From: a virus
Virus record (IMG/VR): IMGVR_UViG_3300028920_002946
Location: 118,678 to 182,677 of that record
DNA length: 64,000 nucleotides
Direction: 5' to 3' (one strand)
Shown one piece after another: positions 44,797 through 59,581 of this stretch. The notes under the pieces are model-generated. The model had not been told where the DNA came from, did no database searches, and was given only the letters and a program-made list of their open reading frames with translations. The translations under genes were made by a program, and so were the position numbers. Every line of letters begins with the position of its first letter. The first letter of the stretch is position 1.

Positions 44797-45924
44797 ATGA
44801 GGAGGCGATCCGTGGAGGAATCGTACGTGCTGGACCATGCCATCTTCGAAACGGTGACAGGCTCCCAGGCCTACGGGACGAACACGCCCCAGTCGGACAC
44901 CGACAGGACGGGTGTCATGGTGCCCGGCCCGGAGTACACGATGGGTTTGCAGAGGTTCGGCGAGTACAGCGACTTCGAGGGCGACGACCGCAAGTTCTAC
45001 GGCATCCAGAAGTTCATGGCGCTGTGCGTCGAGAACAACCCAAGCATCCTCGAACTGTTGTGGGCGCCGGAGAGGTGCGTCCGACAGACAACGCGGTATT
45101 GGGAGGCCATCCTGCCGGCACGCGATGGGCTACTCTCGAAGAAATGCGGCTACACCTACAGCGGATACGCCATCGAACAGCTGCACAGGATCGAGAGGCA
45201 CCGCAAATACCTCCTCGACCCCCCGAAAAGCCCCCCCTCACGGACGGAAATGGGCCTCCCGGAAACCCCGGTGTTCCCGACCTCGCAGCTGAAGGCCGTG
45301 TGCTCGGTCGCCATCGAGGCCATACCGGAGCACATGAGGACGGACTTCTTCTCGGAGCTCGACCAGATATATGGCGACTGGGTGATGCCCCTCTTCGCGA
45401 GGTACTTGATACCGTCGCAGAGGTCGATGGCCATGGATTGGCTGCAGAAGGGGTTGAGATCCCAGGCAAGGTCGCTCGCCACCCTCGGCAGGAGGTTCCT
45501 GCGGGACGAGTATGTCGAGATGGCGGCCAAGGAAATCGAGTACATGGACCGGCTGCAGGAGTGGCGGAGGTATCTGTCCTGGAAGAAGAGCCGGAACAAG
45601 AAACGCGCCGCGCTGGAGGAGAAGTTCGGGTACGATTGCAAGCACGCCATGCACCTCGTCCGGCTGATGCGCATGGGCGCCGAAATACTGCAGGACGGCA
45701 AAGTCAACGTGGATCGGACGGATATCGACGCGGAGGAGCTCCGGGAGATACGCAACGGGGCTTGGGAGTTCGGCCGGGTGCAAGCGTACGCCAGGGAACA
45801 GGACGAGCGTCTGAGGAGGCTGCGTCAGGAGTCGTCGCTGCCACAGGGGCCCAGCGGAAAAACGGCCCAAAAGGCCTGTGTGGAGGTCACGAAATTGTTC
45901 TATCGAGACTGCGGATATGTATAA
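44797..45924 (+). CDS. Pol-beta superfamily nucleotidyltransferase (RlaP/Nuc-transf-like)
   Basis: GSQAYGTNTPQSDTD, NNPSILELL, YDCKHAMHLVRL, LREIRNG. Confidence 0.85.
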   Translation: MRRRSVEESYVLDHAIFETVTGSQAYGTNTPQSDTDRTGVMVPGPEYTMGLQRFGEYSDFEGDDRKFYGIQKFMALCVENNPSILELLWAPERCVRQTTRYWEAILPARDGLLSKKCGYTYSGYAIEQLHRIERHRKYLLDPPKSPPSRTEMGLPETPVFPTSQLKAVCSVAIEAIPEHMRTDFFSELDQIYGDWVMPLFARYLIPSQRSMAMDWLQKGLRSQARSLATLGRRFLRDEYVEMAAKEIEYMDRLQEWRRYLSWKKSRNKKRAALEEKFGYDCKHAMHLVRLMRMGAEILQDGKVNVDRTDIDAEELREIRNGAWEFGRVQAYAREQDERLRRLRQESSLPQGPSGKTAQKACVEVTKLFYRDCGYV

Positions 45925-45968
45925 ATCATGGGCCTAAACGGTATATTACGGACATGGAGGATGCGCCA

Positions 45969-46217
45969 ATGGCGGAATGCCAAGGTTGGTGGGGCAAGAA
46001 ATTCGGGCATAAGTTCGACCATATCTTCGACGTGGAGAAGGGGGAGCCGACATTGTCGGGCTACCAAAGCTCCCGTAGAGGGCCGGGCATCTCCGGAGTC
46101 GATACCTCCCCGGGCATCATGGAGATCCTTGAGGCCAGCAGACCGGTCAAAAGGATCTATGTCTACAGCATATGCCGAAGATGCGGCCACATCATACACA
46201 GGGACGGCATGTCCTGA
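45969..46217 (+). CDS. Small hypothetical protein
   Basis: GGAGG RBS, TATATT at 45942; C..GH.F and CRRCG. Confidence 0.55.
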   Translation: MAECQGWWGKKFGHKFDHIFDVEKGEPTLSGYQSSRRGPGISGVDTSPGIMEILEASRPVKRIYVYSICRRCGHIIHRDGMS

Positions 46218-46242
46218 AAGGGCTTTTGACGGCAGAAATCAT

Positions 46243-46569
46243 ATGGAACCCAAACACGACGATCTACACGAGCGGACATACTTGGTGCAGTGTTGGGTAC
46301 ACCCAAGTTCCGGCAAGGATCTGATGGACAAGAACAGGATCCTGGAGGAGATGAGGACGTTCCTCGGACACGTCTTCACCGACGACAAGGGGCTGGAGGA
46401 GGGCATGAAGCAATTTGAGAGGCAGGTGGACGGCTTGGTCCTGCATCCGTTCTTCATGAGATCCCGCCGCCCCGTCGCCGACCCGGAGGGCGAGTTCATG
46501 GGCAGGATACGGGAGAGCCACCCCGAGGCGAAGTTCGCCTCCTGCCAGGAGATCCCGAACTCGAAATAG
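46243..46569 (+). CDS. Hypothetical protein
   Basis: ORF packed in the operon. Confidence 0.55.
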   Translation: MEPKHDDLHERTYLVQCWVHPSSGKDLMDKNRILEEMRTFLGHVFTDDKGLEEGMKQFERQVDGLVLHPFFMRSRRPVADPEGEFMGRIRESHPEAKFASCQEIPNSK

Positions 46570-46591
46570 TACTTACAGGAGGCGCATACTT

Positions 46592-48100
46592 ATGGCAGCG
46601 CACAACAAGAGCATTCTAGCGGAGGGCCTGCGGGCCATGGCGCGGACGTCCGTCTGCCCGTGGGACGACTACTACGCCCGCATGGCGCAGACGGACTGGC
46701 TGGAGTGGCGCCATGAGAAGCGTTGCACGAAGACATACTTCATCCGCAACTGCCCCTTCGGCGGCTCCTACGCGCTCCTGGGCGGCGTCACGGAGTTCCT
46801 GCGGCAGGTCCATGACTATCGGTTCACGGACGAGGCCCTCGAGGTCATGCGCGGACAGGGATACCGCGAGGACTTCCTCGAGTATCTCAAACAGAAGCGC
46901 CGCCTCTCGCTCATGACCCACAGCCTGCCCGAGGGTTCGATCTTCTTCCCGGGCGAGCCGGCCGTCGTCATCGGCGGGGCGCTCCTGGACGTGCGCCTCG
47001 CAGAGGGCATGCTCCTCGAGTGCGTGAACTTCCCGTCGCTGTCCATGACGAAATGGAGCCGCGTGGCGCACGCCACCGGCACGGGATCCGTCATGGAGTT
47101 CGCCAGGCGCAGGGCGCAGGATCCCTTCCGCACCAGCCTCTACGCCTACCTCGCCGGGGCGGCCGTGAGCAGCAACGACGAGATGGGGCAGTGGTTCGAC
47201 ATCCCCACCGTCGGCACGATGGGCCACGAGTGGATACAGAGCTACGGGCATGAGTTCGACGCCTTCGACCGGTGGCTGGCGCACAACCCCGACAGGCCCG
47301 TGCTCCTCGTCGACACCGTGGACACCCTGTCGTCCGGCGTCCCCAACGCCATCAAGGCCTTCAAGGCGCATAGGGGGGCCATAGGGGACGCCACCATGGG
47401 CATCCGGCTGGACTCCGGCGACCTGGCCTATCTGGCCATGATGGCCTACCAGAAGCTTGATATGGCAGGCCTGTTCAGCGTGAAGATATACATGACCAAC
47501 GACCTCGAGGAACACTCCATACAGGCCATACGGGGCCAGATAGAGCAGAACGCGGCCCGGTTCGGGTATCCGCCCGGGGAGATATTCCGCAAGCTCGTCT
47601 GGGCGTGCGGCACGAAGCCCGGCACCTGCTGGGACCAGCCGAGCATAGGCGGGGTGGCCAAGCTGACGTCGATGTCCTTCAAGGCCTCGGAGCAGCCCGT
47701 CATAAAGCTCGCGCGGGACAACCCCGTCAAGACGAGCATCCCCGGCAACAACAGGTCGGCGGCGCTGGTCAGCGAGGACGGTTTCCTCCAAGGCATCCTG
47801 ATCATGGGCGCCCGCGAGGATCCGAAGGAGATCCGGGAGTTCGTGCATCCGGACGACGAGAGCAAGAGGACGACCATACCGTTGGAATGGGCGGTCGCCC
47901 CCCGCCAAGTGGGCAGCAGCGACGCGCCGCCGCCATCGGAGACGCTGACGGCGGTGAGGGAGCGGGTACAGGAGCAGCTGGCCATGCTGCATTGGACGCA
48001 CCGGAGGCTCGACAAGCCGCACCGGGTGAAGGTCGGCCTCAGCCCGAGGCTCTTCGAGCTCCGGCAGAGGATGATAAGGAACGGGGCGCTCTACGACTAG
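46592..48100 (+). CDS. pncB: Nicotinate phosphoribosyltransferase
   Basis: FIRNCPFGG, EFARRRAQ, GTMGH, LVDT, GIRLDSGDL, TNDLEE. Confidence 0.85.
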   Translation: MAAHNKSILAEGLRAMARTSVCPWDDYYARMAQTDWLEWRHEKRCTKTYFIRNCPFGGSYALLGGVTEFLRQVHDYRFTDEALEVMRGQGYREDFLEYLKQKRRLSLMTHSLPEGSIFFPGEPAVVIGGALLDVRLAEGMLLECVNFPSLSMTKWSRVAHATGTGSVMEFARRRAQDPFRTSLYAYLAGAAVSSNDEMGQWFDIPTVGTMGHEWIQSYGHEFDAFDRWLAHNPDRPVLLVDTVDTLSSGVPNAIKAFKAHRGAIGDATMGIRLDSGDLAYLAMMAYQKLDMAGLFSVKIYMTNDLEEHSIQAIRGQIEQNAARFGYPPGEIFRKLVWACGTKPGTCWDQPSIGGVAKLTSMSFKASEQPVIKLARDNPVKTSIPGNNRSAALVSEDGFLQGILIMGAREDPKEIREFVHPDDESKRTTIPLEWAVAPRQVGSSDAPPPSETLTAVRERVQEQLAMLHWTHRRLDKPHRVKVGLSPRLFELRQRMIRNGALYD

Positions 48101-48115
48101 CGGAACGGAGGACAG

Positions 48116-49015
48116 ATGAACCCGACTCTCGTGGCGGACAGCATCAGGGACAGGTTGTCGAAATACGTCGCCGACCACAACCTCAAGGCTCTGGTGCTCG
48201 GGGTGTCCGGAGGCGTCGACAGCGCCGTCTGCGCCGCCCTCGCCAGGCCGGTGTGCGACCTCCACGGGATCGATCTCGTCGGGCGCAGCATCACCATCGC
48301 CTCGAACAAGCGGGGTGAGATAACACGCGCGCAGTTAGTCGGCGAGGCGTTCTGCACGGACTTCAAGGAGATCGATCTCGGGGACGAGTTCGCGTCGCTT
48401 GTGAAGATCCTCATCGAGGACGACGAGCCGGGCGACCTGACGCACGAGCGGAGGGTGCGCCGCGGCAACCTCAAGGCTCGCCTGCGCATGATCCGGCTCT
48501 ATGATCTGGCCAGCAAACACGGCGGCATGGTGCTCTCCACGGACAACCTCACGGAACTGCTCCTCGGCTTCTGGACCATCTGCGGCGATGTCGGGGACTA
48601 CGGCATGATACAGAAGCTGTGGAAGAGCGAGGTGTACGCCGTCGCGCGCTCTCTGTGCCGCGCATTCGAGGCGGAGAAGAGGTCGGACAGGAGCGAGGCC
48701 CTGCAGGCCTGCATAGCCGCCGTGCCCACGGACGGCCTGGGCGTGACCGACAGCGACCTCGACCAGTTCGGCGCCTCTGACTACGAGGAGGTCGAGCGCA
48801 TCCTCAAGACATGGCTCTGCCAGGACGAGGACGCGTTCGCCTGGGACTCCTGGCTGCGCTACGAGGGGCGCCCGGAGACGTTCAAGGAACTGCTGGAGGA
48901 GCGCGGGCGCATCGCCGACCACCCCGTGGTGTGTAGGCACGTCGCAACGGCCTACAAGCGCGACATACCCATCAGCATACCGCGGCACGACATAGACGGC
49001 CTTCCCGACGAGTAG
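48116..49015 (+). CDS. nadE: NH3-dependent NAD+ synthetase
   Basis: GVSGGVDSAV, GNLKARLRM, STDNLTE, GDVGD, KSEVY, PTDGL. Confidence 0.92.
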   Translation: MNPTLVADSIRDRLSKYVADHNLKALVLGVSGGVDSAVCAALARPVCDLHGIDLVGRSITIASNKRGEITRAQLVGEAFCTDFKEIDLGDEFASLVKILIEDDEPGDLTHERRVRRGNLKARLRMIRLYDLASKHGGMVLSTDNLTELLLGFWTICGDVGDYGMIQKLWKSEVYAVARSLCRAFEAEKRSDRSEALQACIAAVPTDGLGVTDSDLDQFGASDYEEVERILKTWLCQDEDAFAWDSWLRYEGRPETFKELLEERGRIADHPVVCRHVATAYKRDIPISIPRHDIDGLPDE

Positions 49016-49058: not shown

Positions 49059-49556
49059 ATGGGTATGATGGACGTCACCTCCATGCTCGACAGGGTAGCC
49101 GACAGGCTCGAGGCCGCCGGAAGGTTCCGCGAGGCCGAGGATGTCGATGTGCTGTCCAACACGATCGAGGCCGCGGGGTGGCGGCCGCTGCCGACGAGGA
49201 ACGTGGGCGGCGTCCCGCTCACCGAGCGGAAGATCGGCGACCCCAAGGGCATCAAGGAGAGGGGGGACAAACCCTCGAGATTCGATGTGGCGAAGGAGAT
49301 GGTGGACAGGCACATCGACGAGCGCAACGTCGCCATAGGGGCCGTCAAGGCGGGCATGGAGAGGTACGGGAGGATACTCGACGAAATCGCCAGGGAACAC
49401 CCGGATGTCGCCCCGAAGGCGCGCGAGTACAAGAAAAGGGTGAGCGACATGGCCGTTTCGGTCGAAAGGCAGCTGAAGGACTTCCTGCTCTATTTGATGC
49501 AGGTCAAGGGGGGCCCCGAGGTCACCGAATCCATGGTGGATTACCAAAGCAGTTGA
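49059..49556 (+). CDS. Hypothetical protein with conserved N-terminal helix motif
   Basis: LDRVADRLEAAGRFREAEDVD aligns with the N-terminus of 56363-56872. Confidence 0.6.
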   Translation: MGMMDVTSMLDRVADRLEAAGRFREAEDVDVLSNTIEAAGWRPLPTRNVGGVPLTERKIGDPKGIKERGDKPSRFDVAKEMVDRHIDERNVAIGAVKAGMERYGRILDEIAREHPDVAPKAREYKKRVSDMAVSVERQLKDFLLYLMQVKGGPEVTESMVDYQSS

Positions 49557-49581
49557 CACGGGGGCCTCTCCGTGCTATATT
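49553..49581 (+). promoter_or_regulatory. Promoter of tRNA cluster 1 (TTGACA-17-TATATT)
   Basis: Perfect -35, 17-nt spacer. Confidence 0.85.
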
Positions 49582-49600
49582 TGGTGCTTGGAGGAGAACC

Positions 49601-49660
49601 ATGACAAACGCCATGCTCAGGATAGTCGGAGAAGGTAGGGAGGGGAGAGGGCCGTCCTGA
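49601..49660 (+). CDS. Attenuator leader peptide 1 MTNAMLRIVGEGREGRGPS
   Basis: GGAGGAG RBS; codons AGG ATA GGA GAA GGT GAG GGG AGA match the downstream tRNAs. Confidence 0.85.
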   Translation: MTNAMLRIVGEGREGRGPS

Positions 49661-49684
49661 CGGGGCGTTTTGCGTTTGAACACC

Positions 49685-49720
49685 AACCCCCGTCAGGCCA
49701 GCCTGGCGGGGGTTTCTTTT
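49685..49720 (+). terminator. Intrinsic terminator (attenuator 1)
   Basis: AACCCCCGTCAGG/CCTGGCGGGGGTT plus U-tract; 5' arm alternatively pairs with 49656-49665. Confidence 0.85.
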
Positions 49721-49762
49721 TCTGTTCTTTGACAGTCTGCGGGTGCTAACAAGAACATCCAA

Positions 49763-49838
49763 GGCCCTATCGTCTAGTGGACCAGGACGGGTGGTTCTCA
49801 GCCATCAAACCGGGGTTCAATTCCCCGTAGGGCTACCA
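49763..49838 (+). tRNA. tRNA-Glu(CTC)
   Basis: Cloverleaf, loop TT-CTC-AG, CCA end. Confidence 0.92.
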
Positions 49839-49957
49839 TATAGCAAGCTTGTCGCGAGAGGACTCCGCGCGGGGTCTCCGCCCCCAAGGCCTGGCCCGGG
49901 CCGGCAGGGCGGGAGTAGCGGCGGCAGGGCGCTTTCACTACGGATCGGAGGAGGCCG

Positions 49958-50638
49958 ATGGATACTGCAATCGTGGAAATCAGGGCCGCCGAGGGCGGCG
50001 ACGACGCAAAGCTCCTCGTCGAGGAGCAACTGAAGATTTACGGCAAGGCGTGCATGCTGCATGGGCTATGACTGGCCATCCTGGAGATGCGGCCGGGATA
50101 CGTCTGCATCAAGGTGTCGGGACCCGGGGCCGGAAAACTCTTCGGGCCGGAGGGGGGCGGCCACAGGTGGCAGAGGGTGCCGCCGACGGAGAGGCGCGGC
50201 CGCGTCCAGACATCAACCGTCACGGTAGCGGTTCTTCGGGAGATCCCCGATCTGTCGCTCGACATCCCCGACGAGGACATTGAGATCACGACAGCCCGGG
50301 GATCCGGCAGGGGCGGCCAGCACCGCAACGTCACGGACTCCGCCGTGCAGATCAAACACGTCCCCACGGGCGTTATCGTGAGGTGCGAGTCGGAGCGCAG
50401 CCAGCACCGCAACATGGAACAGGCCATGGGTGTGCTGAAGCAGCGCATCCACCATCTGAGGGCCTCCTCGGTTTCAGAGGGGCGCAACAGCAGGCGCCGG
50501 CAGCAGGTGGGGAGCGGCATGCGCGGCGACAAGGTCAGGACCGTTCGCGTGAGGGACGGCAGGGTCGTCAACCATCTCAACGGCGGGCGCACGACGTACA
50601 AGCGGTATTCGCAGGGGCATATCGAGGATTTGTGGTAG
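49958..50638 (+). CDS. Class I peptide release factor-like protein (PPT, GGQ; no domain 1) with in-frame TGA at codon 38
   Basis: GGAGGAGG RBS; IVEIRAAEGGDDA...GL*LAIL...GGHRWQRVPPTE..GRVQTS..GGQHRN; TGA at 50069-50071. Confidence 0.8.
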
Positions 50639-50644
50639 CGACAC

Positions 50645-50720
50645 GGCCCGGTCGTCTAGTGGTTAGGACATTGGGTTTTCATCCCAAAGATCGCGAGTTC
50701 GATTCTCGTCCGGGCTACCA
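50645..50720 (+). tRNA. tRNA-Glu(TTC)
   Basis: Cloverleaf, loop TT-TTC-AT, CCA. Confidence 0.92.
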
Positions 50721-50756
50721 CCCACTCCGGGGGGCGCTATTGAAAAAGGTATTAAC

Positions 50757-50785
50757 TTTACAACAGCGCCCCTCGGGAGTATATT
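50757..50785 (+). promoter_or_regulatory. Internal promoter TTTACA-17-TATATT
   Basis: Immediately before tRNA(CAT). Confidence 0.6.
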
Positions 50786-50796
50786 GATGGGTTACA

Positions 50797-50873
50797 GGGC
50801 CCATAACTCAGTCGGTCAGAGTAGCGGACTCATAATCCGTCTGTCCAAGGTTCGAGCCCTTGTGGGCCCACCA
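50797..50873 (+). tRNA. tRNA(CAT), probably Ile2 (lysidine) rather than Met
   Basis: Ile2-like body GGGCCCA/CTCATAA; leader 1 contains the ATA codon. Confidence 0.85.
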
Positions 50874-50894
50874 CCCATCACAAGGAGCCCCCAA

Positions 50895-51170
50895 ATGATC
50901 ATCACGGCGAATTACGCCCCAGGGCAGCGTGTCTCGATAGTCGATGCCGAACTCACGGCGAGGGTCATGGGGGTGCTGTTCACCGACCGCGGCGTGTCGT
51001 ACATATGCCGATGGTATGACGGCCAGGAATTCCAAGAGAACGAGTTCGGTGACTCAGAGCTGTCCTCGACGGGAACACAGAACAGGGTGGCGGCGATATG
51101 CGGGGCGAGCGATGAAAAAGGCGACAAGGGAATTGCCGAAAAGGTTGCCGAGGCTAACCGCCGGAACTGA
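50895..51170 (+). CDS. Small hypothetical protein
   Basis: AGGAG RBS. Confidence 0.55.
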   Translation: MIITANYAPGQRVSIVDAELTARVMGVLFTDRGVSYICRWYDGQEFQENEFGDSELSSTGTQNRVAAICGASDEKGDKGIAEKVAEANRRN

Positions 51171-51600
51171 CATCAAGGCCTACCTCAAGGAGAAGCGCCG
51201 CTGTGAGTGCGCGCTTCTCAAGGCCATGCGCGAGGCCCACGCCGACCTCAAGGAACTCCTCAAAAAGATGGAGTCCCATTGGGAGTACGAGGATCTCGTC
51301 TACCGGTTCTACCACCACAGCTACAAGGCGCAGTTCGCCGCCGACCTCGGCAACGAGGTGTTCGACAGGCTCCTGTCTTTGGTGCCGTGGGGACACCGTG
51401 AATGCCCCGTGTTCGTACGCAGGCTGCGAGCGCGGTGCCGGCGGCCGTGGACCATGAGAAGGTCGAGGGCCGACATCGAACTGATGCTCCACGCGCGCTA
51501 CTTCCTGGAGATGGCCGTGAGGTACGGCAGGAGATACAAGCGGGGGCCGAATCCCATGCCGAGCGGGTATGCGGCCCTGATGTGCCTGTACGGATTATGA
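51112..51600 (+). CDS. Hypothetical protein
   Basis: ORF between tRNAs; HARYFLEMAVRYG. Confidence 0.55.
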   Translation: MKKATRELPKRLPRLTAGTDIKAYLKEKRRCECALLKAMREAHADLKELLKKMESHWEYEDLVYRFYHHSYKAQFAADLGNEVFDRLLSLVPWGHRECPVFVRRLRARCRRPWTMRRSRADIELMLHARYFLEMAVRYGRRYKRGPNPMPSGYAALMCLYGL

Positions 51601-51604
51601 TAAC

Positions 51605-51680
51605 GCCCCCGTAGCTCAGACGAATAGAGCCTCGGACTTCTAATCCGATTGCCCGGGTTTGAGTCCCGGCGGGGGTTCCA
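51605..51680 (+). tRNA. tRNA-Arg(TCT)
   Basis: Loop CT-TCT-AA, CCA; T-loop TTTGAGT variant. Confidence 0.88.
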
Positions 51681-51681
51681 C

Positions 51682-51756
51682 GCGGACGTAGCTCAATGGT
51701 AGAGCTCGACCCTTCCAAGGTCGCTGTTGTCGGTTCGAGTCCGATCGTCCGCTCCA
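51682..51756 (+). tRNA. tRNA-Gly(TCC)
   Basis: Loop CT-TCC-AA, U73, CCA. Confidence 0.92.
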
Positions 51757-51775
51757 ATTTGTCAAGCGGGATCAG

Positions 51776-52393
51776 ATGAGAAAATTTCGGGATCTATGGA
51801 AACCCTACATCAACCGGCAGAAGTGCTCGGAGTGCCAGCTTGTGACGGCGCTCAACGCGTACACCTATCTGCACGGCAGGCCATATTGCGAACAGGATTC
51901 GGACGAGTACGAGCGCCTTGTCGATATGGTGGGTGCCAGGCACGGGTCGGCGATACACATCGAGAGGGCGTGGAAGCTGTTGGGGATATGGCCCGTCGCC
52001 AGATATATCTCCTTCGATGATGTTCTGTCGCACAGCCCGAGCCACATTTACATGAAGAGGCTACCGCACGACAGGAACTCGAATTGGTCGAAGAGGGTGA
52101 CATGGGTCAAGCGCAACGGGACGATCCAGCGCCAGTCGAAGTCGAAGGCCGTGCTGCCGGCCGAGGTGACGATATGGCATCCGACGGTCGGCTACCACTC
52201 ATGTCTAATTATCGACCGCAACGAGGCCCTCGACATGGTGAGGGTGTCCAACTTCAAGCACGACACGCATTGGTCGGGCTGGATGTTCGTTTCGGAGCTC
52301 AAATGTCTCGAGAGCCGGGTCACGAGCGGGAAGGACGGCTTGAACAGCGATGGTCAGCAGTGGCTGTACAGGGTTTTCGGAACGCGGGAGTAA
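51776..52393 (+). CDS. Papain-fold (C39-like) peptidase candidate
   Basis: Q..SECQLVTALNA, YHSCL, VSNF; stop lies inside tRNA-Gly(CCC). Confidence 0.5.
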   Translation: MRKFRDLWKPYINRQKCSECQLVTALNAYTYLHGRPYCEQDSDEYERLVDMVGARHGSAIHIERAWKLLGIWPVARYISFDDVLSHSPSHIYMKRLPHDRNSNWSKRVTWVKRNGTIQRQSKSKAVLPAEVTIWHPTVGYHSCLIIDRNEALDMVRVSNFKHDTHWSGWMFVSELKCLESRVTSGKDGLNSDGQQWLYRVFGTRE

Positions 52394-52458
52394 CTCAGTG
52401 GCGGAGTCTCTGCTTCCCAAGCAGATGGTCGCGGGTTCGAACCCCGCCTCCCGCTCCA
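52384..52458 (+). tRNA. tRNA-Gly(CCC)
   Basis: Loop TT-CCC-AA, U73, CCA. Confidence 0.92.
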
Positions 52459-52473
52459 CCGTAAGGAAGTTTT

Positions 52474-52812
52474 ATGGCCTTAGACTACATCTTCGATGAG
52501 GATGCAGTTCTCAAGGAAGCGGGCGAGTGGCCCGAGATACATTGTAGTGCCGAGGTGTTTTGCAACAGGTGTCGGGTCAAGCACACTACACTCAAATTCA
52601 CCATGAGCCATCCAGATTACAAGCTACCCAAGGACGTTGTAGGTTGCTTCTATGGGCATGATATGCGCGCCTGTATGTGGTACAACGGAAGAATCGAAAA
52701 GGGGTGGTACAGGAGTAGCGACGTTATCTGCTGCCCCCAATGCGCCCCTAAAGAGAAACGTCATGAAAGATGGAGCTTGTTCTGGTGGAATTTCTGGGGT
52801 CGGTTTTTCTGA
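52474..52812 (+). CDS. Cys-rich hypothetical protein (lower GC)
   Basis: Flanked by duplicated CTCCCGCTCCA (52448, 52850). Confidence 0.55.
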   Translation: MALDYIFDEDAVLKEAGEWPEIHCSAEVFCNRCRVKHTTLKFTMSHPDYKLPKDVVGCFYGHDMRACMWYNGRIEKGWYRSSDVICCPQCAPKEKRHERWSLFWWNFWGRFF

Positions 52813-52865
52813 AGAGGAAGGCTTCACACGAAAGCTGAACAGTCCCCCTCTCCCGCTCCATATAT

Positions 52866-52941
52866 GCGGCAGTAGCTCATCCGGTAGAGCACCTGCTTGC
52901 CATGCAGGAGGTGGTCGGTTCGAGGCCGGCCTGCCGCACCA
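52866..52941 (+). tRNA. tRNA-Gly(GCC)
   Basis: Loop TT-GCC-AT, CCA. Confidence 0.9.
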
Positions 52942-52991
52942 GATTAATCCAGGACGCCCGACATATTATATTGGTGTATGGAAGCCGTAAA

Positions 52992-53106
52992 ACCCATGGG
53001 GCCGGAGGCAAGACAACCGACCGCGCGGCGGCGCCGACGGGGGACAACTTCCCCGGCCTCACGAAGCCGGGCGCCCTTGAGGTTAGAGTCGCCTTTCCCC
53101 ATGGGT
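52992..53106 (+). ncRNA. Unidentified structured RNA candidate (~115 nt)
   Basis: 10-bp terminal stem ACCCATGGGG/CCCCATGGGT, extended bulged helix, two apical hairpins; TTAATC-17-TATATT promoter at 52944-52972. Confidence 0.5.
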
Positions 53107-53120
53107 CCCGGCATATGTAA

Positions 53121-53197
53121 GCCCCTGTAGCTCAGCAGGATAGAGCACGAGTTTCCTAAACTCGGTGTCCCGCGTTCGAGTCGCGGCAGGGGTGCCA
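53121..53197 (+). tRNA. tRNA-Arg(CCT)
   Basis: Loop TT-CCT-AA, CCA. Confidence 0.92.
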
Positions 53198-53204
53198 AAT
53201 ACAG

Positions 53205-53783
53205 ATGGAGGATGTCATGAGGGCAACGCCCAAGAAGTCCGCATCGAAGGCCCCGCGCCCGAGGCGCAATAGCACCCGCAAGGCTGCCGCCAAGCCCAAG
53301 CCGAAAAAGAAGAATACCCCGCCCGACGAGGAGGGGTTCCTCCATGACCGCCTCCTGACGGTCGAATCGGCCCTCAAGAACTTGACCAAGCACGTCCGCC
53401 ACATCGAGAAGGCCCTCGATGACGCCGAGGGAAGGGGCCGGGAAAAAGCCGCCTGGGAGGGTTTCGGCGAGGGCATGAGCGCCCTGTCGGGCCTCATCAC
53501 CGACATCCGAACCATCGAGACCAACATCCGCGATATAGTGGCGCAGAATCCGACCGACCGCCTCGAAAACGCGCTCGGCCGCGCCGTCATGCTGTCGCTG
53601 CTGTGGTTCAGGGAGGGCGACCGCGAACCTCTGCAGATACACAGGATCCTCGTTGCGAAGGTGCTGGACATCTTGAAGGAGTGGGCCTCCAAGAAGGATG
53701 TCAAAACCTTCGAGGGCAGCATGGACCAAGCCCTCGCCAGGAGCGTGTACGACGCCCTCGGCGGCCATTCGATTCTCGACTGA
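53205..53783 (+). CDS. Hypothetical protein with basic N-terminal tail
   Basis: GGAGG RBS suggests start near 53217. Confidence 0.6.
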   Translation: MEDVMRATPKKSASKAPRPRRNSTRKAAAKPKPKKKNTPPDEEGFLHDRLLTVESALKNLTKHVRHIEKALDDAEGRGREKAAWEGFGEGMSALSGLITDIRTIETNIRDIVAQNPTDRLENALGRAVMLSLLWFREGDREPLQIHRILVAKVLDILKEWASKKDVKTFEGSMDQALARSVYDALGGHSILD

Positions 53784-53829
53784 CAACCAAACGAGGCGGC
53801 GCCGCCGCCGCAGAAGAAAGGCGTTCAAA

Positions 53830-54348
53830 ATGGCAATGACCGTACCGGACGACGTCGTGCCGATCATCACGCCGGCGATACGGAATCGTATCGCGCAGCT
53901 ACTCGAGGAGGCCTTCAAGCTCGCCTCGCTGGCAGACTGCTCGGATGTCCTCGAGGGAAGCATCGACAAGCTGACGGCGAAGTACTTCCAGGAGGGCGGG
54001 TCGCCGAGAGATCTCGATGACATGCCGGACAACTCCGACCCGCCGTCGATGTCGATCCTCACAACCGATCTTCCGTCGCCCCGGTCCCTCCTCGAGTCCG
54101 GCGGCCAATCCCGGGCGGTTGGCAGGAACGTCAAAAAGACCCGGGGGATCCCCGTCAGCGAGTTGGTTGAGGCCGACAACTATACGGCGCGCGGAAACCC
54201 CGTGTCCAGGTACAAGGGTGTGTCGTACAGCGGCATGGTGCGCAGGCCGTGGGTGGCCAGGTACAAGGGGAGGCGCCTGGGCTGCTACAAGGATGAGGTT
54301 TCCGCCGCGCAGGCATACGAGCGCGCGCGGTCGAGGAAAAGGGGTTGA
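53830..54348 (+). CDS. Protein with C-terminal AP2-like DNA-binding domain
   Basis: SRYKGVS...WVARY..RRLGCYKDEVSAAQAYE. Confidence 0.7.
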   Translation: MAMTVPDDVVPIITPAIRNRIAQLLEEAFKLASLADCSDVLEGSIDKLTAKYFQEGGSPRDLDDMPDNSDPPSMSILTTDLPSPRSLLESGGQSRAVGRNVKKTRGIPVSELVEADNYTARGNPVSRYKGVSYSGMVRRPWVARYKGRRLGCYKDEVSAAQAYERARSRKRG

Positions 54349-54373
54349 CATCGACCCGCAACGGCGGTATATT
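54345..54373 (+). promoter_or_regulatory. Promoter of tRNA cluster 2 (TTGACA-17-TATATT)
   Basis: Perfect -35, 17-nt spacer. Confidence 0.85.
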
Positions 54374-54427
54374 TGATGGATGTCTGCGCCGGGCGTGCCG
54401 CGGCGCAAACCAGCAGGGAGATTCGGA

Positions 54428-54496
54428 ATGTCTGTGACGGTCCTCAAACGAGTCGTTGTCAAGCGTCGGGTATCGACGCCAAGGGGGGCCGTGTAG
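54428..54496 (+). CDS. Attenuator leader peptide 2 MSVTVLKRVVVKRRVSTPRGAV
   Basis: GGGAG RBS; own translation; GTG GTC AAA CGA GTT AAG CGT CGG GTA match the downstream tRNAs. Confidence 0.85.
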   Translation: MSVTVLKRVVVKRRVSTPRGAV

Positions 54497-54527
54497 CCTA
54501 GTTTCCGTCTCACGCGATGAATACACG

Positions 54528-54561
54528 ACCCCCGGGCGAGCAGCCTGGGGGTTTTCTTTTT
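54528..54561 (+). terminator. Intrinsic terminator (attenuator 2)
   Basis: ACCCCCGGGC/GCCTGGGGGT plus TTTCTTTTT; 54522-54533 alternatively pairs with 54484-54495. Confidence 0.85.
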
Positions 54562-54637
54562 GGGTCCGTAGCTCAGTTGGTAGAGCTTGCGCCTTTTAAG
54601 CGTAAGGTCCCGGGTTCGAAACCCGGCGGGCCCACCA
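54562..54637 (+). tRNA. tRNA-Lys(TTT)
   Basis: Loop CT-TTT-AA, CCA. Confidence 0.92.
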
Positions 54638-54670
54638 GAGGGGACTTGCTATTCTATGCATATCCTTTTC

Positions 54671-54745
54671 GGGCGTGTAGCTCAGTCGGTGCAGAGCGCG
54701 TGTTTTACAGGCACGAGGTCGAGCGTTCGAGTCGCTCCGCGCCCA
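54671..54745 (+). tRNA. tRNA-Val(TAC), CCA not encoded
   Basis: Loop TT-TAC-AG. Confidence 0.85.
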
Positions 54746-54762
54746 CGGAAAGGGATGGTGCC

Positions 54763-55173
54763 ATGGGAAACGAGGAAATCGACGGCTTCAGCACGGAGAT
54801 GATAAGAGAACTCAGGAACGACTTTACATTCTTCATCGCCATGTCCATGCTGAAAATAATGGCGTCATCAACGCCGGACGCCAAGAAGTTCATTCGCGAG
54901 GTGGTCTGGAAATGGCGTGAAAAACAGGTGCAGGCACTGCACATAGTGGCGAGCGAGATGGACAAGAGGATGTTTGAGGACAAGGAGTTCTCCGAATTGT
55001 TCGGCCCCGTCATGAGGCAAGTGAACAAGACGCAGCGCGGGGTGATGATAGACTGCATACGCAAATTCTGCGACACCATGGAGGAAGCCCTCGTCGCGTC
55101 CATGTCGTCCGAAACGGACGGAGGCGACGGGGATCCCTTGAATGAAGAAGGCGAAGGCAACGTGCCCTCATAG
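54763..55173 (+). CDS. Hypothetical protein
   Basis: Stop lies inside tRNA-Lys(CTT). Confidence 0.55.
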   Translation: MGNEEIDGFSTEMIRELRNDFTFFIAMSMLKIMASSTPDAKKFIREVVWKWREKQVQALHIVASEMDKRMFEDKEFSELFGPVMRQVNKTQRGVMIDCIRKFCDTMEEALVASMSSETDGGDGDPLNEEGEGNVPS

Positions 55174-55239
55174 CTCAGCTGGTAGAGCAGCGGACTCTTA
55201 ATCCGCGAGTCCCAGGTTCGAACCCTGGTGGGGGTACCA
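55164..55239 (+). tRNA. tRNA-Lys(CTT)
   Basis: Loop CT-CTT-AA, CCA. Confidence 0.92.
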
Positions 55240-55256
55240 ATTTTTCAGGGCGGCAA

Positions 55257-55333
55257 GCCCCCGTAGCTCAGCGGATGAGAGCACCACGCTCCGGACGTGG
55301 GGGTCGCGCGTTCGAGTCGCGCCGGGGGTACCA
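55257..55333 (+). tRNA. tRNA-Arg(CCG)
   Basis: Loop CT-CCG-GA, CCA. Confidence 0.92.
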
Positions 55334-55347
55334 GCCAAGGGGTGGGC

Positions 55348-55854
55348 ATGGAAGGCGGATGGTTCGTCAAGCTTCTGCTTCTCACCGTCCAGAGGACGTG
55401 GGCCCTTCTGACGGGCGGGGTGGAGTCCCTGTTCTACCTGAAGCATTGGTCGAGGGGCCACAGGATCATCGCGAATGCGCGCGACCTGATAAGGGACACC
55501 GCCGAACTCGAGAGGTTCTACAAAGAGATGCACGTGGTCGAATACCGGCGGGATTGGCTTGACAGATGGTCGTTCCCGTGGGTCACGGCCGTCAAACGGA
55601 AGGGCGACTGCGAGGATTTCATGACGCTGTCGTACGCGATAATGAAGGAGAAGGCGAAGTGCGTGAGGACAGCCCTGTACGGTAGGAGGGACGGCAAGAG
55701 AGGCGGCCACGCCGTGCTGATCGTCCGCGAGTCCGGCGGGTGGGTCTTGATGAGCAACATGCACCGGTATATATGGTTCGACAATCCGCATGACGCGGCA
55801 CGGAAGCATTACGGAAAGGACACGACCAGGTACTACTTCCTGGACAGGACATAA
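55348..55854 (+). CDS. Transglutaminase-like cysteine peptidase
   Basis: KGDCEDF and GHAVL motifs. Confidence 0.7.
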   Translation: MEGGWFVKLLLLTVQRTWALLTGGVESLFYLKHWSRGHRIIANARDLIRDTAELERFYKEMHVVEYRRDWLDRWSFPWVTAVKRKGDCEDFMTLSYAIMKEKAKCVRTALYGRRDGKRGGHAVLIVRESGGWVLMSNMHRYIWFDNPHDAARKHYGKDTTRYYFLDRT

Positions 55855-55861
55855 AACATAC

Positions 55862-55938
55862 GCCCCCGTAGCTCAACTGGATAGAGCGTGCGGCTACGGA
55901 CCGCAAGGTTCCGGGTTCGACCCCTGGCGGGGGTGCCA
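55862..55938 (+). tRNA. tRNA-Arg(ACG)
   Basis: Loop CT-ACG-GA, CCA. Confidence 0.92.
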
Positions 55939-55944
55939 TCTTCA

Positions 55945-56021
55945 GGGCGGTTAGCTCAGCTGGTTAGAGTACGTGGTCGACATCCACGAGGTCGGGAGTT
56001 CGAATCTCCCACCGCCCACCA
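55945..56021 (+). tRNA. tRNA-Val(GAC) with C33
   Basis: Loop TC-GAC-AT, CCA. Confidence 0.85.
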
Positions 56022-56050
56022 TAGACATTCAGGCTGCTTGATGGTATATT
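56022..56050 (+). promoter_or_regulatory. Promoter TAGACA-17-TATATT
   Basis: Directly after tRNA-Val(GAC). Confidence 0.6.
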
Positions 56051-56058
56051 ACGGGCGT

Positions 56059-56298
56059 ATGAAACCTGAAACCGCCGACACACCGACGAAACCTGAAGCG
56101 GTTAACTACGTGGTCGTGTCATGTTGCGCCTGCAACAAGGTCATGTCGGACGACCGACAATGGTTCGACGGCACCGACCTATTGGCCGTCGTGCCCAAGC
56201 ACTTGGTGAGCCATTCCATCTGCCCTGAGTGCTTCGCCGCGCACTACCCTGAAATGCACGCCCGGTTCTCCAAACAGGGTAAAATACAGGCCGGCTGA
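56059..56298 (+). CDS. Small zinc-binding protein
   Basis: CCACNK...W...SHSICPEC. Confidence 0.6.
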   Translation: MKPETADTPTKPEAVNYVVVSCCACNKVMSDDRQWFDGTDLLAVVPKHLVSHSICPECFAAHYPEMHARFSKQGKIQAG

Positions 56299-56362
56299 CT
56301 CCCTAATAATGCTTTAATCGCCACACCTGCTGTACGGACATCAGCAATCAAGGGGATGCCAC

Positions 56363-56872
56363 ATGCAGGCCAGGACTGCCGCTGCCGTTGTGCGCGCAAT
56401 GGACTCGATAGCCTCATCACTCGAGAAAAAGGGACTCCTCAGGGAAGCCGAGGAACTCGATGCGGCGACCAACGCCGTCCAGCGACACGCGACCGACCCA
56501 AGCCAGAACTCGTTCACTTACGACACGTTGCAGCAATATCCCGACTTGATGAAGGCGATCCCTGGTGAGATTCTGTCGGTCATGAAGGCAATGAAAGATT
56601 CAAGCCTATGGTGGCGCGATGACGGTGCCTCCGTTACATTCGACCAATACACATTGGATTCCTCACAGATCAAGACGCTTGCAGCCGCCGGATCCCTCGT
56701 CAAGATATTTCCGGAAGAACACGATAAGTACGGGGATGGGTATCCCGTGCACGACGGATACACAGCGGAATTCAATGTCAAAAGAACGCCACAATTTGAA
56801 CAAGCAGGCACCGCCGCGCTCCAAGATCTCCTCAGGAAAAAGGAATACAAGGAGTTCGACCCGGCCATATAG
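56363..56872 (+). CDS. Hypothetical protein with conserved N-terminal helix motif
   Basis: MDSIASSLEKKGLLREAEELD shared with 49059-49556. Confidence 0.6.
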   Translation: MQARTAAAVVRAMDSIASSLEKKGLLREAEELDAATNAVQRHATDPSQNSFTYDTLQQYPDLMKAIPGEILSVMKAMKDSSLWWRDDGASVTFDQYTLDSSQIKTLAAAGSLVKIFPEEHDKYGDGYPVHDGYTAEFNVKRTPQFEQAGTAALQDLLRKKEYKEFDPAI

Positions 56873-56881
56873 GTGACAGCA

Positions 56882-57229
56882 ATGGACGATGCCAATAAAG
56901 TAGTGCAAGCATACCTCGCCGGGAAGTCAAAGGAAGCGATGGACTTCTCGTCCATCGCGCCGCTGCTCAAGTCCGAGAAGAAAATGGACGACCGCGAGAT
57001 AGCGCGCGCCCTACGGCTCGCCATAGCCGCGGAACACGACGCGGCCCACCTGTACGAACTCATCGCGGACAGTTGCGAGAACAAGGTTGTCCGCGAACTG
57101 CTTCAGGACATCGCCAACGAGGAAAAGGTCCATGTCGGGGAGCTCCAATGGCTCCTCTCCCACATCGACAGGGACAACGGAAGGCTTCTCCAAGAGGGCG
57201 TGGAGGAGGCGCAGGAAATAGCAGAGTAG
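56882..57229 (+). CDS. Ferritin-like/rubrerythrin-type di-iron protein
   Basis: AIAAEHDAAHLYE and DIANEEKVHVGE ExxH motifs. Confidence 0.8.
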   Translation: MDDANKVVQAYLAGKSKEAMDFSSIAPLLKSEKKMDDREIARALRLAIAAEHDAAHLYELIADSCENKVVRELLQDIANEEKVHVGELQWLLSHIDRDNGRLLQEGVEEAQEIAE

Positions 57230-57288
57230 CACATCCCACATCCAGCATCGACACGATCAATAACGACAACGGCAAACAGGGGAGAGCA

Positions 57289-57543
57289 ATGATGAGGGTC
57301 GTCATTGCCTTGGTTGCGCTCGTGTTCTTTTCATGCGCGCCGAGGTTCACGGTCTACCTCCACAGGGAGGACAAGATGAACACGGACGGCATCGTCGTCC
57401 TGTCCATCGACACGCTTGAGGGGGTGCACAAAGGCAAGAGGGTGGTGTACGTCATTAGAAGGGATCTCGGCAGCATCGGGAGCGCGGTCTACGGCGCGAG
57501 GCAGAGAAAAATACAGCCAGAGGTTGACAGTCTCTCGAGATGA
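57289..57543 (+). CDS. Small lipoprotein candidate
   Basis: Signal peptide ending FFSC. Confidence 0.5.
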   Translation: MMRVVIALVALVFFSCAPRFTVYLHREDKMNTDGIVVLSIDTLEGVHKGKRVVYVIRRDLGSIGSAVYGARQRKIQPEVDSLSR

Positions 57544-57552
57544 GGGTATATT
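57524..57552 (+). promoter_or_regulatory. Promoter of tRNA cluster 3 (TTGACA-17-TATATT)
   Basis: Perfect -35, 17-nt spacer. Confidence 0.85.
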
Positions 57553-57574
57553 TGGTTGCACAAGGAGTGATGTA

Positions 57575-57655
57575 ATGGTCTACACGGCGAACAACCCAAA
57601 CCCCGTCCAGCAACCGCGGAACCGCGTTCCGTCGGGGTTGGTGGTATTGCCGTAA
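57575..57655 (+). CDS. Attenuator leader peptide 3 MVYTANNPNPVQQPRNRVPSGLVVLP
   Basis: AAGGAG RBS; AAC CCA CCC CAG CAA CCG match the downstream tRNAs. Confidence 0.85.
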   Translation: MVYTANNPNPVQQPRNRVPSGLVVLP

Positions 57656-57675
57656 GATCAGGCACCAAAAATACC

Positions 57676-57715
57676 AAAGCCCCGGCGGACGAAAGTTCTC
57701 CGGGGCTTTTTCGTT
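57676..57715 (+). terminator. Intrinsic terminator (attenuator 3)
   Basis: AAAGCCCCGG/CCGGGGCTTT with GAAA apex plus U-tract; 57670-57684 alternatively pairs with 57633-57648. Confidence 0.85.
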
Positions 57716-57735
57716 TGGTTCACCTAGGAAAAGAG

Positions 57736-58140
57736 ATGAACACGAAGGATATAGGCGAACGATCCGAGGCACAAGTATTGGCCACCCTCTTAAAAGGGGG
57801 TAAGACAGTACTGAAACCATTCGGAGATAACCAAAGGTACGACCTCGTGGTCGACGAGGATGGAGAATTCCTGAGAGTTCAGTGTAAGACAGGAGTATTG
57901 AAAAAGGGATCAATATACTTCCCGACTTGCAGTAGTTACGGACACCGAGGAAGAGGGAAGAAAGGCTATAAGAGAGAAGCAGACATCTTTGCCGTCTATT
58001 GTCCTGCTACTGACAAGGTCTACATTATCCCTGTCGAAGAAGCACCCGAAAGGCAGTGTTACCTACGGGTAGAGAAAACGAAGAACTCTCAAGACAAAAG
58101 AATTCGATGGGCCGAGAAATACGAATACACGGGTGCGTAG
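57736..58140 (+). CDS. PD-(D/E)XK endonuclease, I-Ssp6803I-like homing endonuclease family
   Basis: GERSE..PFGDNQRYDLV..RVQCKT..DIFAVY; lower GC; stop inside tRNA-Asn. Confidence 0.75.
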   Translation: MNTKDIGERSEAQVLATLLKGGKTVLKPFGDNQRYDLVVDEDGEFLRVQCKTGVLKKGSIYFPTCSSYGHRGRGKKGYKREADIFAVYCPATDKVYIIPVEEAPERQCYLRVEKTKNSQDKRIRWAEKYEYTGA

Positions 58141-58205
58141 CTCAATGGTAGAGCAAGTGGCTGTTAACCACTGGGTTGGGGGTTCAAGTCCCTCCGTGCC
58201 CGCCA
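58131..58205 (+). tRNA. tRNA-Asn(GTT)
   Basis: Loop CT-GTT-AA, G73, CCA. Confidence 0.92.
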
Positions 58206-58230
58206 AATTCAGACCGGTCGCAAATGGCTC

Positions 58231-58704
58231 ATGAATGGCTCAAACGGCTCATGTTATGAGAGATTGACCGGTGAGAAGTTCGTGACGACCGCAATCTACC
58301 CGAACAGGGAGAGGGACAGGCGCGAACTGGAGCGGCTGTCCGACCTCAAGGAGGGCGGCGACGCCTCGATGCTCTTTCACAGCAGGAACGGTACGCTTCT
58401 GGCCCGGGGGTACGCCCGGGTGGTGTACGGAGACCACGGCCCCTACGTCGAGATGTTCAGGGATCAGGTGGAGTGGGCGGCGTGGGAACTCGAACGGTCG
58501 GACATCGGATACTACAACAAGTGGTGGACGAAGGACGGGACCCGCGTCATGCTGTACGAACAGAGGAAGACGGTTGCCGACCTGCCCAACCCGCCCGCCG
58601 GCAAGCGGTCGCACAGGGGGAACAGGAAGGAAGGATACGCTGACTACCGGATAGGAAGACTGTATTTGGATCCTTACGAGGTGGTCATGAAACACGGAGT
58701 GTAG
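58231..58704 (+). CDS. Hypothetical protein
   Basis: VYGDHGPYVE; stop inside tRNA-Pro(TGG). Confidence 0.55.
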   Translation: MNGSNGSCYERLTGEKFVTTAIYPNRERDRRELERLSDLKEGGDASMLFHSRNGTLLARGYARVVYGDHGPYVEMFRDQVEWAAWELERSDIGYYNKWWTKDGTRVMLYEQRKTVADLPNPPAGKRSHRGNRKEGYADYRIGRLYLDPYEVVMKHGV

Positions 58705-58772
58705 CGAAGCCTGGTTATCGCACAAGCTTTGGGAGCTTGGGATCGTCCGTTCAAATCGGACCGCTCCGACCA
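58695..58772 (+). tRNA. tRNA-Pro(TGG)
   Basis: C1, loop TT-TGG-GA, A73, CCA. Confidence 0.9.
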
Positions 58773-58779
58773 GATTTGA

Positions 58780-58855
58780 TGGGGCGTGGCTCAGTTGGTA
58801 GAGCGGCTGACTCTGGATCAGCAGGTCGGAGGTTCGAGCCCTCCCGTCCCAGCCA
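58780..58855 (+). tRNA. tRNA-Gln(CTG)
   Basis: U1-A72, loop CT-CTG-GA, G73, CCA. Confidence 0.92.
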
Positions 58856-58934
58856 GTTTCACCCCCCGGGGTGCGGCCTGTAGCGGGCCGCGCGGCCACA
58901 CGGCGGAAATCAGGCTCCGCCACGGGAGACCAAT

Positions 58935-59009
58935 TGGGGTGTAGCTCAGTGGTAGAGCGGCGGCCTTTGGAGCCGCGCGTCGGGCGTTCGAACCGCCCCA
59001 CCCCAGCCA
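58935..59009 (+). tRNA. tRNA-Gln(TTG)
   Basis: U1-A72, loop CT-TTG-GA, G73, CCA. Confidence 0.92.
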
Positions 59010-59020
59010 TGGAGGAAGTA

Positions 59021-59278: not shown

Positions 59279-59345
59279 CTCAGTCTGGTGGAGCGCTGCG
59301 TTCGGGACGCAGAGGTCGCCGGTTCAAATCCGGCCACTCCGACCA
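59269..59345 (+). tRNA. tRNA-Pro(CGG)
   Basis: Loop TT-CGG-GA, CCA. Confidence 0.92.
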
Positions 59346-59373
59346 ATCTTTCACCTGTTTACGATCTTGCGAA

Positions 59374-59450: not shown

Positions 59451-59490
59451 ACTCATGTTGTCCTTTGACAACACTTTCTGTTCAAACAAC

Positions 59491-59519: not shown

Positions 59520-59581
59520 AAGTGGGTAATGATGCGATGCTTATGCACTTCATTCTGTACAAATACTCAAAGGAGAGGGTC

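Follow-up and report, generated by a model that had tools for sequence, protein, structure and literature searches.

Codon-matched putative attenuators ahead of the tRNA operons of a giant uncultured phage

The analysed window comprises 64,000 nucleotides of the IMG/VR virus record IMGVR_UViG_3300028920_002946 (positions 118,678 to 182,677 of that record), and all features discussed here lie on its plus strand. According to ARAGORN, it contains a cluster of eight tRNA genes at 49763-53197, which encode, in this order, tRNA-Glu(CTC) (49763-49838), tRNA-Glu(TTC) (50645-50720), a tRNA(CAT) (50797-50873), tRNA-Arg(TCT) (51605-51680), tRNA-Gly(TCC) (51682-51756), tRNA-Gly(CCC) (52384-52458), tRNA-Gly(GCC) (52866-52941), and tRNA-Arg(CCT) (53121-53197). 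The cluster is preceded by a sigma70-type promoter (TTGACA-17-TATATT, 49553-49581), a Shine-Dalgarno site (49590-49595), and a short leader ORF of 19 codons plus TGA (49601-49660), hereafter referred to as A1. The leader is followed by an intrinsic terminator with a 13-bp stem (49685-49714, -25.2 kcal/mol) and a U-tract, together spanning 49685-49722; the surrounding region 49665-49735 folds with z=-3.6. Three mutually exclusive helices can form in the leader transcript. Segment 1 (49606-49626) pairs with segment 2 in a protector helix (1:2, -23.4 kcal/mol), segment 2 (49656-49665) is the 5' strand of an antiterminator helix (2:3, -21.7 kcal/mol), and the terminator constitutes helix 3:4. As proposed in the preliminary description, segment 2 spans the leader stop codon (49658-49660) and is the exact reverse complement of 49688-49697, the 5' arm of the terminator. 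A 12-mer just after the terminator (49723-49734) appears to resemble rrn boxA and might represent a NusB/E site. It is conserved in the A1 alignment, and also occurs after unit A3 (see below) in a 98%-complete relative (G001).

Intriguingly, the leader is written in the codons that the downstream tRNAs read. The preliminary description reported codons 7-17 as AGG ATA GTC GGA GAA GGT AGG GAG GGG AGA GGG, matched by a one-to-one set of downstream anticodons, and this observation was confirmed. Ten of the codons in this control block (49619-49651) are read by the cluster, and all eight tRNAs are covered. In the whole leader, 10 of 18 codons are read by the cluster against 3.5 expected (P=8e-4), and the joint probability of this count and the 8/8 coverage is 1.7e-4 under genome codon usage. 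Shuffling the leader's own bases yields P=2e-4, and shuffling only the purine-rich block 4e-4. The 11-codon block is the only one of 294,268 windows in six frames of the genome with at least 10 matches and 8/8 coverage, although this criterion was chosen post hoc. The complete match is, however, restricted to this genome; the GGG codon is missing from codons 7-17 of all seven relatives in which the leader recurs, although those with enough DNA retain tRNA-Gly(CCC).

In these seven relatives (locus GC 47-60%) the promoter is conserved as well. The A1 leaders constitute eight distinct homologues of 19-20 codons. The Shine-Dalgarno site is absent in two of the relatives (L001 and L083), where the ATG lies 9 nt after the -10 box and translation is probably leaderless. 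The 21 Arg codons in the eight A1 leaders are exclusively AGA or AGG (21/21), and 11 of 12 Ile codons in the control blocks are ATA. Helices 2:3 and 3:4 are 90% and 99% paired, respectively, in the eight homologues, whereas slid controls give 32-59% and 35-64%, and a 1:2 helix folds in most of them. Covariation was not above that of shuffled alignments, however; the pairs are conserved rather than compensated, and in two relatives an A-C mismatch weakens helix 2:3.

The first protein gene behind the terminator encodes, as the preliminary description had suggested, a release factor homolog (49958-50638). This RF1-like protein of 226 aa contains the PPT and GGQ motifs and has its best hits to RF1, but it lacks domain 1 and scores below the NCBIfam cut-offs for prfA, prfB, and prfH. 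Notably, its gene contains an in-frame TGA (50069-50071) at codon 38, which is present in 9 of 9 close relatives. This is reminiscent of the +1 frameshift autoregulation of prfB, where a UGA-C also occurs early in a release factor gene, and more distant phage relatives appear to need a frameshift at the same position. Here, however, the stop is in frame and the protein is RF1-like without domain 1. A literature search on phage release factor read-through found no description of such a case, although most subscription papers lay outside its reach.

The preliminary description had read the tRNA(CAT) as a lysidine-type Ile2 tRNA, with the rare ATA codon in the leader as independent support. This assignment is backed by the identity elements G3-C70, which excludes Met and fMet, C4-G69, and C5-G68 (criteria in PMC1635315). 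G3 is present in the seven relatives in which ARAGORN called this tRNA and in a further locus, L167. Moreover, two other CAT tRNAs with C3 are located behind an ATG-bearing leader in G001. No phage TilS was found in G000 (39% complete) or G001, and the host enzyme is thus presumed to act on this tRNA. An internal promoter (TTTACA-17-TATATT, 50757-50785) lies 11 nt before tRNA(CAT) and is conserved in six relatives (L001, L082, L083, L165, L167, and L169). It bypasses the leader for six of the eight tRNAs, namely those for Ile2, Arg, and Gly, so that only tRNA-Glu(CTC), the release factor, and tRNA-Glu(TTC) depend on the upstream unit alone. A second, weak promoter-like site (TTAATC-17-TATATT) is found at 52944-52972, and a similar site precedes tRNA-Arg(CCT) in L082. 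No strong terminator was found inside the cluster.

A1 is one of three such units in the window. Unit A2 (54345-54553) consists of a promoter, a leader (54428-54496), and a terminator (54527-54553) ahead of Lys2, Val2, and Arg(CCG, ACG) tRNAs, and unit A3 (57524-57712) of a promoter, a leader (57575-57655), and a terminator (about 57676-57709) ahead of Asn, Pro, and Gln tRNAs. Each leader matches its own cluster and not the others (10/18, 12/21, and 11/25 codons; P=8e-4, 3e-5, and 5e-5; off-diagonal P at least 0.1). G001 encodes five such units (A1-A5), and a five by five comparison gave diagonal P values of 7e-5, 1e-4, 6e-5, 6e-8, and 3e-3, with off-diagonal values of at least 0.4. Strikingly, the five tRNA operons of G001 together read all 61 sense codons, and leader A5 has a codon for each of its 20 tRNAs. 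Of the codons for amino acids that are split between operons, 24 of 25 go with their own operon. Other lineages with other tRNA sets carry other matching leaders, as does the cultured phage phiCbK (P=6e-4). Many tRNA-rich relatives gave no matching leader within 20 kb loci, but these are uninformative since the cluster start may lie outside the locus, and a terminator pattern scan of viral contigs found only G001. The host could not be identified: the sigma factor of G001 has its nearest named cellular hits in Gemmatimonadaceae, Chitinivibrionales, and Sphaerochaeta at about 40% identity, and GTDB hits of the release factor share 58% identity or less, many of them being myxobacterial.

Taken together, these features are best explained by ribosome-mediated transcription attenuation that gates the phage tRNA operon and reports slow decoding at the isoacceptor level, plausibly as a response to host tRNA nucleases. 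In the absence of expression data, we assign this reading, of which the attenuator was already proposed in the preliminary description, a probability of about 0.85. In this model, RNA polymerase starts near 49588 and a ribosome translates the leader. If codons 7-17 are read quickly, the ribosome reaches the stop and covers segment 2 or, once released, lets helix 1:2 form; the terminator folds, and transcription ends near 49720. If any tRNA for those codons is scarce, cleaved, unmodified, or uncharged, the ribosome waits at codons 7-16, segment 2 captures segment 3 before segment 4 is made, and the polymerase reads on into the tRNA genes that decode those codons. This would constitute negative feedback at the isoacceptor level, with the sister units doing the same for the other tRNA sets and the internal promoter giving six of the eight tRNAs a basal supply. 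The geometry of the leaders is consistent with this model. In footprint folds of 15 leaders, with an assumed 15-nt ribosome front, the antiterminator energy collapses just after the last matched codon (A1 17/18, A2 15/17, A3 16/17-20, A4 21/22, A5 30/31-32), although segment 2 lies at different distances from the stop. At equilibrium, however, the full-length terminator wins for A1 and A2 at every ribosome position, so switching must be kinetic. In addition, most control codons occur only once or twice, which gives a weaker pause than the codon runs in classical leaders.

Alternative explanations appear unlikely but deserve consideration. The leader could be a general translation-status switch, in which any early stall, or pausing on the SD-like purine runs in codons 11-17, opens the terminator, and the codon match is a by-product of base composition. 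Indeed, any stall at codons 2-16 frees segment 2 in the footprint model. Nevertheless, composition-preserving shuffles give P=2e-4 to below 1e-5, the sister leaders differ considerably in composition while each matches its own tRNAs, and synonymous codon choice follows the isoacceptor set. Similarly doubtful is that the terminator is merely leaky, or a timing switch overridden by a phage antiterminator or Nus complex, with most tRNA stemming from internal promoters and little effect of the leader. The conserved promoter at 50757, the boxA-like motif, and the terminator being the equilibrium fold would agree with this view. The boxA-like motif, however, lies after the terminator and cannot help pass it, A2, A3, and A4 start with tRNAs that have no other promoter ahead of them, and the conserved leader length, codon content, and footprint fit would remain unexplained.

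A classical amino-acid starvation sensor (Glu, Gly, Arg, Ile) that happens to lie before tRNA genes would work by the same mechanics, and classical leaders also show biased synonymous codons through selective charging (PMC1183508). We consider this improbable, because no biosynthesis or synthetase gene was identified behind the unit, where tRNAs, the release factor homolog, and unknown ORFs are found, more tRNA presumably would not relieve amino-acid shortage, and Arg, Ile, Ser, and Val codons are split between leaders exactly as the tRNA genes are. As the switch would also respond to starvation, this alternative concerns purpose more than mechanism. Chance proximity of a short ORF and a hairpin to tRNA genes might be invoked because short ORFs are common and the block was picked after the fact, but it is effectively refuted by recurrence in eight A1 homologues, five unit types, and other lineages.

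The unit shares its promoter, short translated ORF with control codons, alternative helices, intrinsic terminator, and, as inferred here, slow decoding as the signal with the leader-peptide attenuators of amino-acid operons (trpL, hisL, leuL, pheL, and the multivalent thrL and ilvL; PMC1183508, PMC3082878). In contrast to these, its output is tRNA genes instead of enzymes, its codons list isoacceptors of several unrelated amino acids once or twice each rather than runs of one amino acid, it resides in a phage, and several units share out the whole code. No curated Rfam leader model matched at gathering score or at E up to 5; only tRNAs were detected. T-box riboswitches also couple codon-level sensing of tRNA to antitermination, but they bind uncharged tRNA directly without translation and would not be switched on by loss of the tRNA. 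No Rfam T-box or other riboswitch match was found here, and the leader is only about 135 nt long. In Streptomyces phage, UUA-dependent bypassing in the terminase gene also lets a phage read the host's tRNA status through a codon (PMC10732093), but it involves one codon, translational recoding, and a proposed lysis/lysogeny output, with neither an attenuator nor a tRNA output. The likely selective reason for supplying tRNAs is given by phage tRNAs that offset tRNA-cleaving defences such as retron-Eco7 PtuAB, PrrC, PARIS, OLD, and Schlafen (PMC11555353, PMC10264068, PMC12409363, PMC12445682). The solution described there is a strong promoter or cleavage-resistant tRNAs (PMC11555353), and no feedback control was seen in the passages and abstracts consulted. 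We found no published account of such control of tRNA genes, although most subscription papers were beyond the scope of the search.

More tentatively, the phage might audit the host's whole decoding apparatus, with five translated leaders that cover nearly every codon class and each release the matching tRNA operon on demand, while a leaky stop in the release factor gene adds a sensor for termination. Together, these could form an inducible counter-defence against tRNA-cleaving immunity whose leaders also name the tRNAs under attack. This possibility is not excluded by the evidence, but we consider it slightly less likely than not.

Such a switch would extend attenuation to control of tRNA genes, help assign CAT tRNAs, and offer compact isoacceptor-specific biosensors. 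Why phages carry tRNAs has been open for decades, with codon compensation and the replacement of tRNAs destroyed by host defences as the competing explanations. A feedback switch for each tRNA set makes this question testable, also in the cultured phiCbK, which has the same design, and would show that these tRNAs are supplied on demand.

The window comprises the last 64 kb of a 182,677-nt virus record with 62% GC, which is 39% complete. Since its proteins also lie on a 463,769-nt contig, this virus is a jumbo phage of about 460 kb, the host of which is unknown. The window holds 22 tRNA genes on the + strand, extending from 49763 to 63720. Genes for an RlaP-like nucleotidyltransferase, nicotinate phosphoribosyltransferase and NAD synthetase are located just upstream of the first attenuator unit (44797–49015) and are syntenic in relatives, and likely represent an NAD rebuilding module.

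Everything reported in the preliminary description, which proposed a codon-matched attenuator ahead of the first tRNA cluster, is present in the sequence. The promoter is located at 49553–49581 and is followed by the leader ORF (49601–49660), whose codons 7–17 are as listed there. The 10-mer spanning the stop codon (49656–49665) is the exact complement of 49688–49697 in the 5′ arm of a 13-bp terminator with a U-tract. In addition, a third helix pairs the start of the ORF with the stop region, and the calculated energies are −23.4 kcal/mol for helix 1:2, −21.7 kcal/mol for helix 2:3, and −25.2 kcal/mol for helix 3:4. Ten of the 18 leader codons are read by the eight downstream tRNAs, against 3.5 expected. 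The count and the full coverage together have P = 1.7e-4, compared with 2e-4 when the leader's own bases are shuffled and 4e-4 when only the purine-rich block is shuffled.

Two more units consisting of promoter, leader and terminator lie at 54345 (A2) and 57524 (A3). Each leader matches only its own cluster, with 12/21 codons for Lys, Val and Arg(CGN) in the former and 11/25 for Asn, Pro and Gln in the latter, whereas the off-diagonal comparisons gave P of 0.1 or more. By using the release factor encoded behind the first unit (A1) as bait, we found a 466,729-nt, 98% complete relative (72% identity; here called G001), whose 37-kb array of about 45 tRNAs is split by five such units. Units A1–A3 of G001 are orthologous to those of the window, while A4 precedes Phe, Asp, Met, Met, Ile(GAT) and Ser(GCT), and A5 precedes 20 tRNAs. 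Intriguingly, the five operons read all 61 sense codons, and leader A5 has a codon for each of its 20 tRNAs (0 of 100,000 shuffles). Among the codons of amino acids that are split between operons, 24 of 25 go with their own operon: AGR is found in A1 and CGN in A2, ATA in A1 and A5 but ATC/ATT in A4, and AGC in A4 but TCN in A5. G001 possesses both tRNA-Ile(TAT) and Ile2(CAT) (181254 and inside cluster A5), with ATA codons in both leaders, and internal promoters also occur inside cluster A5.

Eight distinct copies of A1 were aligned, with the GC content of the relatives' loci ranging from 47 to 60%. The length of 19–20 codons, the Glu-Gly-Arg-Glu-Gly core, the stop-spanning segment and the terminator are kept. 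All 21 Arg codons are AGA or AGG, and 11 of 12 Ile codons in the control block are ATA, a codon used at 1.35% in this genome. Helix 2:3 is 90% paired and helix 3:4 99%, far above slid controls, but there is almost no compensatory change and covariation thus adds nothing. The GGG codon is missing from the seven relatives, so that the perfect one-to-one set of codons and anticodons noted in the preliminary description is particular to this genome. In two relatives (L001:9509 and L083:9532) the A1 leader has no SD and starts 9 nt after the −10 box, and it is therefore probably leaderless.

To assess the geometry of the proposed switch, the nascent RNA was folded up to the end of segment 3, with everything up to 15 nt from the start of the P-site codon held unpaired. 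In this model, segment 3 stays captured with the A site at codons 2–16 and is released by codons 17–18, where the matched block ends. The same coincidence holds for A2 (last block codon 15, lost by 17), A3 (16; 17–20), A4 (21; 22) and A5 (30; 31–32), although segment 2 lies across the stop codon in A1, after it in A4, and well inside the ORF in A5. At equilibrium the finished terminator wins in A1 and A2, so control must be kinetic in these units, whereas A3 switches even at equilibrium for codons 12–15.

The tRNA(CAT) of the first cluster, which the preliminary description read as lysidine-Ile2, has G3-C70, C4-G69 and C5-G68. The G3-C70 pair excludes Met and fMet, and the other two pairs are needed by the E. 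coli TilS (PMC1635315). In G001, two further CAT tRNAs with C3 sit in A4, whose leader has internal ATG codons. No phage TilS was found in the 39% complete record or in G001.

A promoter 11 nt before tRNA(CAT) (50757) is conserved in six relatives, and a weaker one lies at 52944. Accordingly, A1 alone gates Glu(CTC), the release factor and Glu(TTC), while the Ile2, Arg and Gly tRNAs probably have a basal supply that A1 tops up; no strong terminator separates the two parts. The bypass by internal promoters, which the preliminary description had itself recognized as a possible objection, is the main uncertainty in this interpretation. A structured non-coding stretch (52990–53110; z = −2) lies behind the weak promoter and ahead of Arg(CCT). 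It is 80% alike to L165:14649–14712 in a relative, but has no Rfam match. A 12-mer that appears boxA-like follows the A1 terminator in most copies and may, by analogy to the role of boxA (PMC12360218), protect the long transcript from Rho.

The release factor (49958–50638) is RF1-like, lacks domain 1 and has an in-frame stop at codon 38 in nine of nine close relatives, which is TGA-C in eight and TAG in G001. Many more distant relatives have an in-frame TGA or appear to need a frameshift at the same position, and the family also occurs on myxobacterial chromosomes. This arrangement looks like a second, translational sensor. Notably, the window contains a tRNA with anticodon TTA (63645–63720), which is of the ochre-suppressor type, and G001, whose release factor carries the in-frame TAG, has a CTA (amber) tRNA (195864–195937) at the matching position after cluster A3.

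Elsewhere in the tRNA array, a gene for a PD-(D/E)XK nuclease (57715–58140; PF11645, E 2e-41) is inserted between the A3 terminator and tRNA-Asn and is absent there in G001. A tRNA-like element missed by ARAGORN (59374–59447; Rfam 28.5 bits) has a Pro-like body and a TAA anticodon and is preceded by a boxA-like motif at about 59459, and a weak-scoring extra tRNA-Pro(TGG) at 60661–60740 (22.5 bits) is possibly degenerate. Several ORFs end on a stop codon inside the 5′ end of the next tRNA gene (52391–52393, 55171–55173, 58138–58140 and 58702–58704).

An unbiased scan of the retrieved loci revealed matching leaders with other tRNA partitions in other lineages, namely in the loci L039, L068, L069 and L149 (P 1.5e-3 to 1e-7, best of several candidate starts), among many loci without a match. 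Including L044, L046 and L073, the partitions observed ahead of such tRNA clusters were Tyr/Leu, Pro/Met/Phe, Leu/Ile/Glu/Asn, Ser/His/Trp/Ile/Asn/Arg, and Arg/Ser/Gly. Moreover, in the cultured Caulobacter phage phiCbK a 32-codon leader before the Phe, Val, Ile and Gln tRNAs covers 6 of 6 anticodons (P = 6e-4), and the annotated gene gp083 holds Pro, Lys, Leu and Ser codons ahead of those tRNAs.

Taking together the anatomy, the codon match, the conservation and the geometry, the most likely interpretation (probability about 0.85) is a classical ribosome-coupled attenuation turned into negative feedback on tRNA supply, although translation of the leader, switching and purpose are inferred. 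Host tRNA nucleases are a plausible driver, since phage tRNAs are known to rescue phages from PtuAB and PrrC (PMC11555353). A general stall sensor appears unlikely, as does a terminator that is bypassed by other means. A sensor of amino acids is likewise improbable, but would overlap with the favored reading in mechanism, and a chance arrangement can be all but dismissed.

As inferred here, the unit works like trpL, hisL, thrL and ilvL and has the structural features of that class that could be tested. However, it is not a member of those operon families, because it controls tRNA genes and matches no Rfam leader, and it is not a T-box. No account of such a control of tRNA genes was found in the literature searched. 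Although the evidence is all computational, the sharing-out of the whole code is surprising, and it makes the purpose of phage tRNAs directly testable.
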